A stretch of 63,991 nt of DNA, counting the filler, from Licmophora abbreviata (Eukaryota): NCBI GenBank assembly GCA_900291995.1. It is 12 parts of 12 records of this genome, joined end to end, with 100 filler letters (N's around TTAATTAATTAA, not from the genome) between each part and the next. Parts side by side here need not be neighbours in the genome. Positions count along the whole stretch, not along the records: positions 60,643 to 62,683 come from OLMU01003132.1; positions 62,784 to 63,991 come from OLMU01003133.1; 10 more parts are not named here. One strand, given 5' to 3'. The notes under the pieces are model-generated. The model was given only the letters and a program-made list of their open reading frames with translations. It made no database searches and was not told the origin of the DNA. This document shows positions 872-63,991 of this stretch, piece by piece; the first letter of the stretch is position 1, and each line of letters begins with the position of its first letter. A program made the position numbers and the translations under genes.

Positions 872-2362
872 TTATACAGGAGGAGTAGGAGTCGTTTCCT
901 GACGACGGGCCAACGCAACGGTTCGATCGTTCCTTGCGCCTTCCCCCTCGTCGCTGTCCACAAATTCGTCGGTCGCATCCTCCTCGTCATCCTCCACACT
1001 GCTACAGCAGCTACTATCGTGCAATACATTCGTCTTGCAATCTGGACAGCTTCCCACTCGCTCTGTCAACCATGGGTATATGCAATCGTAATGATAAGCA
1101 TGACGACACCGCGGCAAGACCCGTAGCCGTTCCCCCTCCTCAAAGTCTAGTATGCAAATGGAGCACACGGTGGAAGTAGTACTTGAATTCTGCTCCTTTT
1201 GTACCCTTCGTTCGTCGTCAGGCTCGACCATTGACACATTGTCCTTCTCCACACGGCCATTTTCCTCGTCACCGCTACTAGTTTCCTCCTCGTCGGTCGC
1301 TGAAGTGCTGCCATTGCTACTTGCATCATCATCTTCATCATGATACACCAGTATTGGCAAATCCATGACTTGTTCTTTGGAAAGAACGTTCTTCTTCATT
1401 GTATCCGTAGTTTCCTGTCGCATACGTCGCGCCCTCATGAGTTCCTCCACGGAATTTCCGTCTCCATTGTCGTGCCACCACTTGAATAAGAACATGACAC
1501 AGGGCGTGGCCAGTACAAAGAGAAACATGGACAGAAAGATCGAGTACAAGACAATATGACTGCTGGTGCCATTGCCGTTGTTGAACGAGGAGCCAGCGCT
1601 GTCGTCATTCCGAGTTTCTTCCATATTATTGGAAGGAGTAATGGTGAGATTCAAGTCCCATTGGTTGTTGCCGAGAGTGTCCACATGTGGACTGCTATTT
1701 GTAACGCCGTCCTCGTCGTTTTTCTGGTCCACCGATCGTATGACACTCCGCATCGTCGTTCCGGTAGTGAGACTGACAAAGAGGAGTCCCATGTTATCCG
1801 TATTGCTCGTAGACGGAAGACTCCTGAGGATTGCAGTAGGGTTCGGAAGCGCCTGAGGATTCGTGTTGGAAGGATCGTCGCTGGCTGGATGAAAGATGAG
1901 GTATCGTATCCCCTTGGACTGTTGAAGTCGAGCGACATGCTGAATTTGGGATGCAATACTGCAGTTTGCAGACATGCTGACGAGCAGGGCAATGGGAGTC
2001 GACGAGCCTTGGCTAGCGCTCTGAGGAACGGAAGTAGAAGTAGCCGTATCGGATGGATCGCGGCAGAGGTCGAGATTGGAGTCGGGGGGAAGCATCAAGG
2101 TGACGGTGCGTCCCGCTCCGAGTACGCTGTACTCAGTGCTGGAGACCACAGCCTCGTATTGGCGTATGATTCCAGTCAGTCTCAGTTGGACAATCGCAGT
2201 CGAGCTGCCCCGCAGCCGTCTACGTTCCGTGGTTGTGACGGAAGAATCGTCTGCCGAGACACGTCCCAACAGGGCAGTCACAATGGCTACTACAAGTAGT
2301 AGTAATCGTAGTAGTAACAGGGCATTGGTAGTAGTAGTTCTGTTATGACGCCGATGCCACAT
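872..2362 (-). CDS. Membrane-anchored RING-H2 E3 ubiquitin ligase (signal peptide, PA-like lumenal region, TM, RING-H2; RMR/RNF13-like)
   Basis: N-terminal hydrophobic signal, TM segment (IVLYSIFLSMFLFVLATPCVMFLF) and RING-H2 CSIC...LPRCRHAYHYDCIYPWL...CPDC. Confidence 0.9.
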   Translation of the reverse strand: MWHRRHNRTTTTNALLLLRLLLLVVAIVTALLGRVSADDSSVTTTERRRLRGSSTAIVQLRLTGIIRQYEAVVSSTEYSVLGAGRTVTLMLPPDSNLDLCRDPSDTATSTSVPQSASQGSSTPIALLVSMSANCSIASQIQHVARLQQSKGIRYLIFHPASDDPSNTNPQALPNPTAILRSLPSTSNTDNMGLLFVSLTTGTTMRSVIRSVDQKNDEDGVTNSSPHVDTLGNNQWDLNLTITPSNNMEETRNDDSAGSSFNNGNGTSSHIVLYSIFLSMFLFVLATPCVMFLFKWWHDNGDGNSVEELMRARRMRQETTDTMKKNVLSKEQVMDLPILVYHDEDDDASSNGSTSATDEEETSSGDEENGRVEKDNVSMVEPDDERRVQKEQNSSTTSTVCSICILDFEEGERLRVLPRCRHAYHYDCIYPWLTERVGSCPDCKTNVLHDSSCCSSVEDDEEDATDEFVDSDEGEGARNDRTVALARRQETTPTPPV

Positions 2363-15709: not shown

Positions 15710-16104
15710 AGAACGCTGTCTCATCGCAAAATTAGACGTTTATTTATGTGCTATTGAACAACATTAATTTTGTTTATTCAAGTCGCAGTTGTCTGGCAGA
15801 ACTGTTTTCGAAAGGCGCTGATACCGTCCAAATCGACCACGTACATGCCGTTTCCACATCGTGCTTGGATCTCTGGAATCGACAGCCCACCCTCGCCCAC
15901 AGTGTCACTTGCACTGTGTCNNNNNNNNNNNNNNNNNNNNNNNNNNNNNNNNNNNNNNNNNNNNTTAATTAATTAANNNNNNNNNNNNNNNNNNNNNNNN
16001 NNNNNNNNNNNNNNNNNNNNATGATGATGATAGATTGCCCCTTGGTTATTGTTTCTCTTTTGTATTTGCTTCGCCGCTCGCAGCACTAGTGCTTCGTTCT
16101 GAGA

Positions 16105-57727: not shown

Positions 57728-59352
57728 ATGGAGCAATTTGTGCTTGGTATCTTTCAGGAGCATCTTTCCAAGGTACGATATCCTATCTTGCACTTTGTGG
57801 ATGCTAGACTTGCGCTTTCTTTCAGACTTCTCATTTTGTCTCCCTTCTGATGTCTTCATTTCTCTAGTTCATTGTTGGCTTTCATAAAGAGCAAGTCAAT
57901 GCCAACTTACTGAATGGAAAGGGCGAAATCACGGACGTCGAGTTGAACTGCGACTTTCTCAATGGCGTCTTGAAAACCATTACCCCCTACGTGCAGTTGG
58001 AGAGTGTCCACGTTTCCAAACTTTCATTTCACGTCACAGCATGGGCCAATATACGGAAAGCTCCCATTCTGGTGGATGTACAGGATGTCCGTGCTAGTTT
58101 GGTTGAACCGCTCGACTATCTGGACAAGACAAAACGACGGGGTATGCAGCAAATAACGCAAGCAGAGTTCACTGACCTGATCCAGAAGGGTATCCAAAAG
58201 CTACGAGGCTCCTATAACCTCTTCGATCGCATTGTGGACAATCTGGCGGTTGAAATACGGAGTGTCCACATTCAGTTTCAGACTCGTGGCAAGTTCAAGA
58301 CTACACGGGTGGGCGACTGGACGCCGCCGACGCTGCTCGCGACGCTCAAACACATCCGGTATTTTAGTGTCGACGAGTTTGGCAATGATGCGTCACCAGA
58401 AGAAGTCTGGAGACACAACAAGCACCCTCATGGACAGCCGTCACATTTGCGGACCTTTACGATATTCAAAAAACTGTCCATGCAATGCAGTGTTGGATTG
58501 TGTCGTCCGGGGGAATTGGAAAATATGCCGCCGCCTTTGGTGCGGGAGGCAAATGTTGTTGTGCATTTGTGCTTTAAAAAGAGACTCCGAGATGCTGCAA
58601 TTCTAGCGGTTCAATGCGATGCGAGTGTATCGCGGGCCGAAGTTCACGTGGATCAAGATGCGGTACCCATGTTGGCGCACGCTTTGGCCGGCATGCAATA
58701 CTGTCTTGCCAAGGACCGGGCATTTGACGATCCTCTTGTCCCCGAATCACACGACCCTATGACTGTTGAAGTAGGATTCGAAGCGCCATTGGGATCAGCT
58801 CCAGAAGTAGTGGAGGAAGTGGCCGAACCGATAGAGAAAATTGAGGAAGGGGATGCCGAGAGTGGAGAGGACGAAGCGGCTCCTTCAATACCAACGACTG
58901 GCGACATGGAGGACAATGCGTCCGACATTTCATCTTTCAATGATGATGAGTTTGATATGAGTATCGATGGCGACAGTACTCATTCGGGCATGTCCGGTGC
59001 CAAGGCAGCCACCGGCGGGGATAGACCCATTCTTCTGCTACCCAGCGGTATCGTCATCCAGGAGGCTCTTACGATCACGTTGTCGGTAGAGCACTGCACT
59101 ATGAGAGGTACCTATCCGACTAAGCTTGATGGATATGTACAACTAACCNNNNNNNNNNNNNNNNNNNNNNNNNNNNNNNNNNNNNNNNNNNNTTAATTAA
59201 TTAANNNNNNNNNNNNNNNNNNNNNNNNNNNNNNNNNNNNNNNNNNNNAACTTCTGGCTGCTTCTGAGCGAAAGGGTGTCTTGGAGGCGACGTCGGCTAC
59301 AACACCTTTAGGGCGTACGGGGGAGGAGCAAGACGCACATCGACCTGACTAG
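57728..59352 (+). CDS. Chorein_N (VPS13/BLTP-like) domain protein; large internal part missing in the gap
   Basis: Exon 1 is 57728-57772, intron 57773-57867, giving MEQFVLGIFQEHLSKFIVGFHKEQVNANLLNGKGEITDVELN. Also IVDNLAVEIRSVHIQF. Confidence 0.65.
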
Positions 59353-60308: not shown

Positions 60309-60796
60309 GGTGTTTATAGACGATGTACTGCGTTAGAATACGGAAGAGGTAGTAGTCTGTTGCAGACGACGACGGCCCAGATTTCAGTTTGTGAACGCTG
60401 TGTGGTGTGCGGCTGTGCGGCCTGGTCGCTCGTCGTAGGATTTCTACGCCGCAAGTAAGGAGTAAGAAGATCGTGACTCAGACTTCGAAATGAGTCATGA
60501 ATGAAAACATTGGAATCATCATTCTATCTCACTTTTTTCACGNNNNNNNNNNNNNNNNNNNNNNNNNNNNNNNNNNNNNNNNNNNNTTAATTAATTAANN
60601 NNNNNNNNNNNNNNNNNNNNNNNNNNNNNNNNNNNNNNNNNNCTAGTTCTGAAGGTAACATCGGAGGAAGGGAATGCGTCAGCATCGCGATAAGAGTGTC
60701 AACGATGGACGACATCCTCACACGACGCACGGCTTCTTTGCTGTGGTCGTTCCTCCCACCAGTGTCTTCGTTGAGACCACACAGACCATCCTTAGG

Positions 60797-61672
60797 ATGA
60801 ACGATCATCGCTTCGTGTTTCTGCTCGCCACAGTGCTGCTGGTACCGTCCGCAACGAGTCTGGCGACCCCTGTCTCTCGCCGCTCCGCGGTCGAGTGGGT
60901 CATCGGCGCTGTCGGGACGATGGGCATCTCCTCGCCACTAATCGCCTCGTCTCGGCCCGCATGGGCCGAGACTCCAGATTCGCTCGACATTGACGCGTAT
61001 CTCAAGCGCGGTGCAGCGAGCAACCCCATGGGGGTCAGTGGGCAGGCTGGAAAGAGTCGACCCGAAACTGGTATTTTGCTGAGGGACGGCAGCGAGGTAT
61101 TCCGCGATGAACGCACTGGAGATGTACTTGCCGAAATCTTGCTCGAGTCGTCCGATGACCAGTCGGGAAAGACTCCCGTACTGGCTAGCTACTCCTCGCC
61201 TTGGCCGCTTGCTAGAGGGACTGTCTTTGATGTGGAGTGTCGTGATGCGAAGACAGGCGATGGTGCCTTTCTCTCAGTCACACCTCCCACCAAGGGCAAA
61301 TCGATTGCTGACTTGAAAGATTCCTTCTTTCTGGACAGTCTCTTGTCCCCGACTGGTCGATTTTCCTTTTACGGTCCACCGACAGATGTCAAAATTCAGA
61401 AGAGTGTGGTCACTGGCGACAGGAGGGTAATGGACTTGTCTTTTTCCACCATCTCGCAAGCTACTCAAACGGAGATTCCAAGGAAAGCCCGATTGATTGC
61501 CACAGTACCGCCAGGATCCACCCAGGCCGTCATGCTGGTTGCTAGTGCATCGGCATTACGTTGGAAGAAGGGGTCCGAACAAGCTATTGGAGCCACAGTG
61601 GACTCATTCCGAGCCATACCGGCACCCAAGACGGCCATGAAGGTGCGCGCAAAGGAACGTCGAGGCGGCTGA
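60797..61672 (+). CDS. Thylakoid-lumen-targeted protein, PsbP-like domain probable
   Basis: Signal peptide, twin-Arg SRR, hydrophobic stretch and AWA cleavage site. PsbP-like end RWKK..I..TVDSFRA. Confidence 0.7.
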   Translation: MNDHRFVFLLATVLLVPSATSLATPVSRRSAVEWVIGAVGTMGISSPLIASSRPAWAETPDSLDIDAYLKRGAASNPMGVSGQAGKSRPETGILLRDGSEVFRDERTGDVLAEILLESSDDQSGKTPVLASYSSPWPLARGTVFDVECRDAKTGDGAFLSVTPPTKGKSIADLKDSFFLDSLLSPTGRFSFYGPPTDVKIQKSVVTGDRRVMDLSFSTISQATQTEIPRKARLIATVPPGSTQAVMLVASASALRWKKGSEQAIGATVDSFRAIPAPKTAMKVRAKERRGG

Positions 61673-62510
61673 TGCTCCTTCGCGGGCTTGCATAGCTAGT
61701 TTCAGTACGTATAGTATCTGTGAAGCAAGTCTCGATCATAGATAGGGAATTGGAAAACATAAACCACAGGCGAACGTGGCGGTGATGGAGCGGCTGGAGT
61801 GTATTAGCTCCGATTCCAAAGTCATGGCCAGCCATGCGGCGTGTTTCGGTGGGCGTCCAAAAGCAGCCAGCCACCCCCTCCCCCGTCCGCACGTATCCGC
61901 TGCTATCATGGGAATTTCAAATAGTCGAACGTCGTGAGGCGAACGCAAGAATAGCGACGATCAGTCTAAGAGTAGAGGGGCTGGTATCGTTAGGATTTCC
62001 TATTTCTAAATTGCCGTTATCATCATGACATAATGAATAATGACCACCCCCGGGGTAGGATTTGATGATATTACTATTATCTTTATTCAGTCGTGGATGT
62101 CAATTTTATGAATCTCTTCGTTGACATTAAAGTTTTTGTACACTCAGTTATGTATTTAGTGTCCTACATTGTTGGCTAGACACTTATGTTGTTACATGTG
62201 TGACACAACCGACAGGCGCTCAATGTAAAATAGATAGAAAAGGCTTGTCTCATCATTTTGCCGCGGCGCGCCAAAAAAGCCATTGGCGTGAAGCTAAAAT
62301 CCGAAAAAAGCGCGCGAAACATCTCTTTGCATCATCACTGCCAAAAAAGACAATGATTGCGTGATGCTCAAGAGATTCCCGGGATCACTTTCTTTTGCCA
62401 TATTATACCGCCGCCGAAAAAACCGCTGAGTGAATCTCAGGCCCCATTCGAAAGGCCCCGGGGGTCACGTTAACTGTTTGCCTCACCCGACTAGCAGACC
62501 CACTTAGACA

Positions 62511-63991
62511 ATGAGAGCCTGGTTCTCTAGTCTCCTCAAGCTGAAAACGGTCGTCTTTCTCGCTGCCGCCGTCAGTAATCTCGGCACCGCTGCAGCACGT
62601 AACTTTCAAAAGGGCGTGCCTCTTTACTCGGCACAGTCGTGCGACGCGCTCACTCCGCACACGTCCTCGCAATGGTGGTATTCNNNNNNNNNNNNNNNNN
62701 NNNNNNNNNNNNNNNNNNNNNNNNNNNTTAATTAATTAANNNNNNNNNNNNNNNNNNNNNNNNNNNNNNNNNNNNNNNNNNNNAATCTCGGCACCGCTGC
62801 AGCACGTAACTTTCAAAAGGGCGTGCCTCTTTACTCGGCACAGTCGTGCGACGCGCTTACTCCGCACACGTCCTCGCAATGGTGGTATTCGTGGTCCACG
62901 ACAACTGGCTTCACTGGTAAAAAACGTTCTTTGTGTGATCGTCCCGAGCAAGCGGTAAGCAAGATAAGGGATGCCGGGATGGAATTCGTTCCCATGTTTT
63001 GGGGCTCTGTTCCTTCTCTACCGCTCGATAGCGAGACCGAGACGAACCTACAGGAGGCAAGCTACTTGCTGACCTTCAACGAGCCTGACCGCACAGATCA
63101 GTCCAATATCCTGCCCGCAGATGCGGCGCAGCTGTGGCCTCAAATCGAGAAGATCGCGGGTGACTACGGTCTTGAACTGGTAGCTCCATGCACGACGGGC
63201 AATAGAATAGGACTGGACTGGTATGACGAGTGGCTCGGGAATTGTACTATGCTGTACGGTTCAAGCTCTTGCGTCTTTGATTACACGTGTGCACATCTTT
63301 ATTATCAGCCCTGGGATGATGCCCTTGGATCCTGCGGCCCTGACGTGGTCGAATGGGCCTGCATTGGCAACCAAGCAATCAAGGCGTCCACAAGGATCAA
63401 CCAGTGGTATGATAGGTACGGAAAAGAGATGTGGCTCACTGAGTTTGCCTGTGGGTTTGGCATCGAAGGTGAAACGGGCTGCCCCGAAGCACGGCAGTTA
63501 GCTCTTATGGAGCAAATGCTGCCGATACTGCACGACAATCCAGCTGTATTTCGCTACTCTTGGTATAGTGCATTCAATATCGATTGGGTGCACAACAGTC
63601 TCAATGAGCTGGTCTGGGACGTATCTAAAGCACAGATCTGTCGCAACACAGAATGGCTCAACCACTTCGGAACTCAAGACGGACATTTTAAGGACTTGCA
63701 CGAGTGCATTACAGCCGCTGATGATAGACCTGACTGCGCGTCGCCACTTTCACTGTCAATGAGCAATAGCAACTGTTTTTGCGCCACCGATAGATGCGAT
63801 GTCCTGGATAGCGCTCACAGTTCAATGTGGACCTTCAAAGAGGTCGGGCCAAGGAGTCCATCTGCCTTGACGCCCCTGGGTGAGTACTACAACAACTACG
63901 ATGGAGAGACCGAAGAAGAGGACGCCGGTGAGGATGGCTTTCGGTCGCCTGCACGCTGCTTCTCAGGACACACTACTGTTGTGGTAAGGGG
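62511..63991 (+). CDS. Secreted GH128 (Glyco_hydro_cc) beta-1,3-glucanase-like protein with a Cys-rich insert and the start of a probable Hint domain (runs off the window)
   Basis: 62577-62683 duplicates 62784-62890, so the gap is false. The merged frame is open to the window end: WWYSW, EFVPMFWG, LTFNEPD, WLTEFA, RYSWY, LTPLGEYY, then CFSGHTTVVVR. Confidence 0.85.

Follow-up and report, generated by a model that had tools for sequence, protein, structure and literature searches.

A predicted secreted GH128 glucanase of Licmophora abbreviata with the probable start of a Hedgehog-type Hint domain at its C-terminus

The window analysed here is a stretch of 63,991 nucleotides from the genome assembly of Licmophora abbreviata (GCA_900291995.1; 29.2 Mb in 7734 contigs), in which 12 contigs are joined end to end. 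The gene of interest lies on the plus strand at the 3′ end of the window. It begins with an ATG at 62511 in contig C3132 (window 60,643–62,683; OLMU01003132.1) and continues into contig C3133 (window 62,784–63,991; OLMU01003133.1). Between the two lies a 100-nt assembly spacer (62684–62783), composed of 44 N, a 12-nt linker and a further 44 N, and identical spacers occur at 11 places in the window. There is no real gap at this position: the flanks of the spacer overlap, 62577–62683 being a duplicate of 62784–62890 over 107 nt with 1 mismatch, which is an assembly artefact. The overlap is in frame with the ATG and starts 22 codons downstream of it, and the frame from 62784 to 63989 remains open up to the end of the window (402 aa). 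The gene as it can be read thus includes 22 codons, a further 402 codons and a final incomplete Gly codon. A preliminary description of this DNA had proposed that closing the false gap gives one open frame, and the in-frame overlap together with a frame open to the last base confirms this. Base 63991 is the final base both of C3133 and of the window.

The N-terminus includes a basic stretch and then a hydrophobic core, in which the KD mean over 9 residues reaches 2.66, with Ala-Ala-Ala ending at residue 29. As judged by eye from the translation and hydropathy, these features constitute a predicted signal peptide (residues 1–29; 62511–62597), in agreement with the earlier reading. Similar hydrophobic N-termini are present in all three of the paralogs on contigs C3114, C3103 and C3104, and the glucanase is predicted to be secreted. 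A plastid-type bipartite leader, which carries a Phe after the cleavage site as its motif, was considered and rejected since there is no Phe behind the predicted cleavage site.

The region 62805–63899 encodes a GH128 barrel, which is closed by a last helix (LTPLG..Y). The Pfam profile PF11790 matches with 144.4 bits against a cut-off of 21 (E 5.6e-42), and the best PDB sequence matches (E 6.5e-18) are 6UAW, 6UAV and 6UAX, entries titled GH128 subgroup II endo-beta-1,3-glucanases. The first catalytic Glu, in the NEP motif (63081–63083; E122 of the full chain), aligns to a position occupied by Glu in 8J3X and, in the E168Q mutant 8J3Y, by Gln. The second, in the TEF motif (63441–63443; E242 of the full chain), aligns to the conserved W-x-T-E motif of 6UAV, 6UAW, 6UAX and 8J3X. 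In the accessible text of PMC10956234, E168 and E272 are given as the catalytic residues of the enzyme in 8J3X/8J3Y. An AlphaFold model obtained from a 48-row alignment has a mean pLDDT of 91. The ten best matches of a structure search with this model (VIA, 48,161 chains) belong to GH128 without exception (Z 28.1–21.9, the next family reaching 18.1), and Foldseek concurs with the assignment to a GH128 barrel. The assignment of the protein to GH128 is therefore supported by the profile, by two catalytic Glu in register and by the predicted fold; the FNEPD and WLTEFA motifs lie where they had been placed. Since the structural matches span model residues from about 5 to 377, the barrel is complete ahead of the linker which follows it.

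By both sequence and fold, the nearest known enzymes are those of GH128 subgroup II (PvGH128_II, 6UAV/6UAW; ScGH128_II, 6UAX; Saccharophagus CBM6E, 8J3X/8J3Y), with Z values of 27–28, an rmsd of 2.2–2.8 Å over 244–250 residues and both catalytic Glu in register; at just 27–29% identity, this closeness denotes a best match and implies neither a subgroup nor an endo or exo mode of action. In contrast to these enzymes, the window protein is eukaryotic and includes an insert of about 80 residues with six Cys as well as a probable C-terminal Hint domain. Judged by its family, its predicted substrate would be beta-1,3-glucan, in a wall, mucilage or storage compartment.

The insert (63612–63854; model residues 277–357) appears in the model as a separate unit within the barrel, located ahead of the last helix and composed of strands and one helix, with a pLDDT of about 90–98. 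The structural alignments of the barrel span the insert yet align only about 245–250 residues. Among homologs, more than 55 residues align over the insert in 27 of 46, and five of its Cys are at least 90% conserved in the homolog alignment; the insert is typical of this algal GH128 subfamily. A Pfam scan of the insert retrieved no family. The insert may be PAN/apple-like, and it is possibly a glucan-binding module.

The barrel is followed by an acidic linker of 19 residues (63900–63956), as had been described, across which pLDDT falls to 54–38. Immediately behind it, at 63957, the sequence R|CFSGHTTVVVR reads as reported, and the last two bases of the window fix a Gly at position 12. These last 12 codons (63957–63991), which are cut by the contig end, had been proposed to begin a Hint domain. 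Two verified Hint genes are present elsewhere in the genome, on contigs C5723 and C6980 (PF01079, E 8.2e-29 and 2.5e-27), and the Hint of C6980 aligns from Cys1 onwards to the Drosophila HhC structures 6TYY/1AT0. Over their first 12 residues the two share C1, F2, G4, V8, V10 and G12, and the last 12 codons of the window carry all six of these invariant residues. When written as a codon pattern (C-F-[SP]-G-x3-V-x-V-x-G), this signature occurs at exactly three sites in 29.2 Mb: C5723, C6980 and 63957–63991. The reversed control gave none, and on base composition 0.11 sites are expected genome-wide and 8e-7 in one frame of 435 codons; these figures apply to a pattern for which two of the three matches are the training set, which was composed when the fit of 63957 was already known, and in which Ser was allowed as TCN only. 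An alternative pattern built from the two contig ends was set aside as circular, and with one mismatch it gave 8 matches versus 7 in the control. The site is in frame and begins 19 residues behind the closure of the barrel, at the place where homologs attach a variable C-terminal module.

Taken together, the last 12 codons are very likely, as far as can be judged from their sequence, the start of a Hog-type Hint domain. The block-A part of the earlier proposal stands, as all three genome-wide matches are either Hint starts or this site, while beyond codon 12 no sequence of the domain was found in the assembly. PF01079 did not match 20- and 30-residue pieces of the window end, but the profile has no power on pieces this short, since for the two true Hints 30 residues yielded E 0.18 in one case and no match in the other. 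The residue ahead of Cys1 is Arg here and Ile in the C5723 and C6980 Hints, and in Hedgehog a Gly lies directly ahead of Cys1. An intein was also considered and rejected: the barrel is complete ahead of Cys1, which leaves no split host domain for splicing to restore.

The homologs, a set of 59 proteins obtained from two homolog searches and one search for representatives, include many fragments. Those with a named source come from diatoms, P0008 from Nitzschia and P0009 from Epithemia, with 42% identity to the window protein. An Atlas search with the whole protein retrieved PF11790 clusters (best 0.83); with the last 25 residues it gave nothing usable. After the shared core, homologs carry a linker at the same place, mostly rich in P, T and S, and then a variable module. 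A Hint is absent from all 59 (39 were scanned with Pfam and the remaining 20 were judged from precomputed domains), and none of the 59 matches a loose block-A pattern, so that these relatives lend no support to the Hint reading. C-terminal modules are thus swapped within this GH128 family, and the Hint of the window gene would be lineage-specific.

What became of the body of the domain is in part a question of assembly. Searches of the assembly with PF01079 and with two Hint protein queries retrieved only C5723 and C6980 (two of two candidates each), a search with the Vint profile PF14623 gave no match, and tblastn of both genome Hints over the collected loci found nothing better than E 0.07 elsewhere. 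The window ends where C3133 ends and no Hint was found in the next contig, C3134; extension into the next window therefore does not yield it. The assembly includes four GH128 paralog contigs (identity about 83–87%), all of which end at a contig edge ahead of any Hint body, and C3103 and C3104 break off at one and the same homologous base. Only C3133 and C3114 include the C-terminal half of the glucanase. Contig C3134, which follows the window gene, and C3113, which follows the paralog C3114 in reversed orientation, share homology that starts at their first base and extends over about 275 nt, with a score of 120.5 against 51 ± 7.6 for shuffled sequences, none of 1000 shuffles reaching 120.5. 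Contig ends thus converge or diverge at shared points, which suggests sequence common to the copies that was split out by the assembler. Both genome Hints have 450 nt between codon 13 and the P-x-R motif and contigs in this assembly stop at 500 nt, so a Hint interior of this size would be dropped. We infer that the remainder of the domain is located in DNA which was left unassembled and which the paralog shares.

Metagenome data also point to missing sequence. A 562-nt contig from run X1 covers 63899–63991 with 1 synonymous difference and continues for 469 nt past the break. A contig from run X3 represents a third 3′ variant with a different linker, which has only 2 of the 14 listed differences in common with C3114 and whose linker has no match in the assembly. 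These contigs indicate that the assembly is incomplete here. Four further searches did not extend the gene: a homolog search with the last 40 residues (1 candidate, no match), a pattern scan of JGI metagenomes (none), a search for related loci (584 candidate stretches, none confirmed) and the search for representatives, where none of the 29 matches reached past query residue 118 of 143.

The beginnings of C3134 and C3113 may provide the other end of the gene. In one frame, C3134 begins A-P-R-I-Y and reaches a stop after 10 codons; C3113 likewise begins A-P-R-V-Y with a stop after 23 codons. At position 163 the genome Hints have P-L-R-V-Y and P-I-R-L-W, followed by at least 87 and by 99 residues, respectively, with a hydrophobic segment. 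A-P-R-[IV]-Y resembles P-x-R suggestively but differs in spacing, and the start of C3134 is taken here as a presumed tail; more than a single piece may be missing from the gap ahead of it. This presumed tail includes neither the hydrophobic segment nor the 87–99 further residues of the genome Hints.

We consider it likely that the gene encodes an intact, self-cleaving fusion of a GH128 glucanase and a Hint domain, only a minor share of this confidence falling to a version which includes lipid ligation. The precursor would be a secreted GH128 glucanase ending in a Hedgehog-type Hint and would enter the secretory route by means of its predicted signal peptide. By analogy with Hedgehog chemistry, the Cys1 thiol would attack the preceding peptide bond at Arg413|Cys414 in an N-to-S shift. 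Resolution of the thioester by water or a small nucleophile would then release a mature enzyme of about 384 residues, and this freed enzyme would be expected, judged by its family, to hydrolyse beta-1,3-glucan. For the window gene, no block B His, HMM-level match or sterol region was seen within the contig or in the assembly searches.

A special case of this reading, and the stronger form of the earlier proposal, is that a complete Hint with a working sterol/adduct region ligates a lipid to the C-terminus of the glucanase and tethers it to the cell surface. The alga would then use Hedgehog chemistry to put a sterol or another lipid onto a beta-1,3-glucanase, a case of a lipid-anchored polysaccharide hydrolase outside animals. 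We regard this as rather unlikely. It is favoured by the two genome Hint genes, both of which include H-x4-P-x-R, a loop and then a further conserved stretch, as in the first helix of Hedgehog, where the accessible text of PMC7242414 places H374/P379/R381 of the sterol-recognition region (SRR). However, nothing of this region is seen for the window gene and, should its tail be the sequence that opens C3134, translation would end 10 codons on. According to the same text, loss of the second helix in human SHH leaves cleavage without cholesterol ligation. If the presumed tail includes the first SRR helix, it has no second one and would resemble SHH in this state, and no complete sterol-recognition region was seen; for these reasons plain release is ranked above lipid anchoring. 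In the literature searched, no algal Hog was reported to ligate a sterol.

Somewhat less probable than the lipid tether is a real Hint start followed by a degenerate or truncated domain, which would leave an ordinary secreted glucanase with an inert tail. That all four paralog contigs end ahead of any Hint body is consistent with such decay, as is the third 3′ variant of run X3 with its other linker, which shows that 3′ ends are labile; the presumed tail is also short. Nevertheless, neither Cys1 nor any of the six block-A positions is altered and no stop interrupts the frame before the contig ends, while the first codons of the presumed tail differ between paralogs by synonymous third-position changes. 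These features argue against an inert tail.

It is improbable that the motif is a coincidence and that the gene continues into a different C-terminal module, for instance the small Cys-rich one seen in the nearest homologs, or into an intron from 63984. Four of the 59 homologs, including the close P0002–P0005, do start their post-linker module with a similar sequence, C-[FL]-x-x-G-[ED]-G-x-G-C. The window ending does not fit this module: the homologs have a second Cys nine residues on together with G-[ED]-G, where the window has Val and no such motif. The GTAAG at 63984–63988 lies in a canonical donor context (G|GTAAG); were it used, the pattern would be cut short at this point, with 28 matches expected genome-wide and 2e-4 per frame. 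However, this is one of four GT[AG]AG words in the uninterrupted open frame, of which another GTAAG, at 62955, lies within conserved coding sequence; it is probably not a splice site, and for the full pattern the single-frame chance is that given above. Least probable is an assembly chimera in which the glucanase contig was joined to the beginning of a Hint gene that has nothing to do with it. In favour of a chimera, the assembly is fragmented, contig ends overlap and there are four paralogs; the X1 contig starts at 63899 and no independent contig bridges barrel and linker by at least 31 letters on each side. Against it, the frame is continuous, the linker lies where homologs have one and there is no other copy of the Hint start in the assembly which could act as donor (1 match at up to 2 mismatches).

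The preferred reading, a secreted glucanase released by its own Hint, belongs to a known type of architecture. The accessible text of Burglin 2008 (PMC2362128) describes proteins with a secreted N-terminus followed by Hog across protists, and Hog genes which readily take new N-termini. Recognisable cargos in that text are choanoflagellate Hoglet, with a cellulose-binding-like N-terminus, and fungal GmGIN1 (GTPase-Hog). Like these protist and algal Hog proteins, the window gene would combine a signal peptide, a lineage-specific N-terminus, often Cys-containing in that group, and Hog; it differs in that its cargo is GH128, while that part of the text names no glycoside hydrolase cargo and no diatom example. 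Compared with Hedgehog Hog itself (PF01079; 1AT0/6TYY), both have a secreted N-terminal cargo and then a module initiated by Cys-Phe, but the cargo in the window is an enzyme and not a ligand, and block B and SRR were not seen in the window gene, whose Hint is read only to codon 12.

Expansions of Hint genes are known from diatoms: the accessible part of PMC12803021 gives over 290 in Pleurosigma pacificum and 112 in Seminavis robusta, as counts and not as cargos, and that of PMC3879662 reports Hint transcripts in Ectocarpus and Seminavis. A fungal AIG1-Hint is described in the corresponding part of PMC8778642, where no fusion of Hint with a glycosyl hydrolase in eukaryotes was found. Our literature search, with subscription papers mostly outside its scope, likewise retrieved no GH128-Hint pairing.

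A further Hint gene of this genome also concerns a hydrolase. Contig C5724 carries a frame on the minus strand (L018:1-1485) with a hydrophobic N-terminus, a GDSL lipase and a vWA domain. It faces, across a contig gap, a minus-strand frame of C5723 (L009:1138-2478) with a weak PKD match, the Hint and a hydrophobic tail. No overlap between the two contigs was found. As judged from their sequences, they are likely to represent one secreted GDSL-lipase/vWA...PKD-Hint gene, so that the genome likely fuses Hint to another secreted hydrolase. This gene and the diatom Hint expansions share the module, and likely the lineage, of the window gene. The Hints of C5723 and C6980 have long tails that include a hydrophobic segment, whereas the presumed tail of the window gene is short. 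The remaining Hint is found on C6980 (L010:1-837, minus strand), a contig of 837 nt open at both ends, which includes a Pro-rich linker, a complete Hint and a hydrophobic tail.

The pairing had been called unusual. This holds in that GH128-Hint is found in none of the 59 homologs; the architecture as such is described in many eukaryotes in the accessible text of PMC2362128 and is likely repeated here with the GDSL hydrolase. GH128 is thus a probable new cargo on a known architecture of secreted cargo and Hog. In the literature searched, we found no test of the effect of non-animal Hog domains on their cargo, and a glucanase cargo with its simple assay could show whether an algal Hog just frees its partner or lipidates it as well. 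Should the lipid-anchored version be true, the Hint would have been grafted recently, and in this lineage specifically, onto an algal GH128 subfamily which has its own unclassified six-Cys insert, and glucanase activity would provide an easy read-out of what algal Hog domains ligate.

Several observations concern the neighbourhood. Seven contigs numbered between those of the window (C3117, C3118, C3126 and C3128–C3131) are missing from it, at the spacers 15921–16020, 59149–59248 and 60543–60642. C3126 and C3127 have an overlap of 354 nt (96%), C3131 and C3132 one of 79 nt (97%), so spacers can conceal whole contigs. The identity of the paralogs L002 (C3114), L011 (C3104) and L012 (C3103) to the window gene varies along the gene, that of C3114 being 96% in one 100-nt bin and 78% in another, and this uneven identity may reflect exchange between gene copies. 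A segment of C3102 (L013:2835-3138) is 68–70% identical to regions upstream of the glucanase paralogs on C3103 and C3104; the gene downstream of it is, judging by motifs, presumably RtcB-like. Finally, window 976–2201 and L006:5392-6460 (C3113) share three homologous segments with 70–80% identity and another copy is present in C3118, which points to a second small gene family duplicated nearby.
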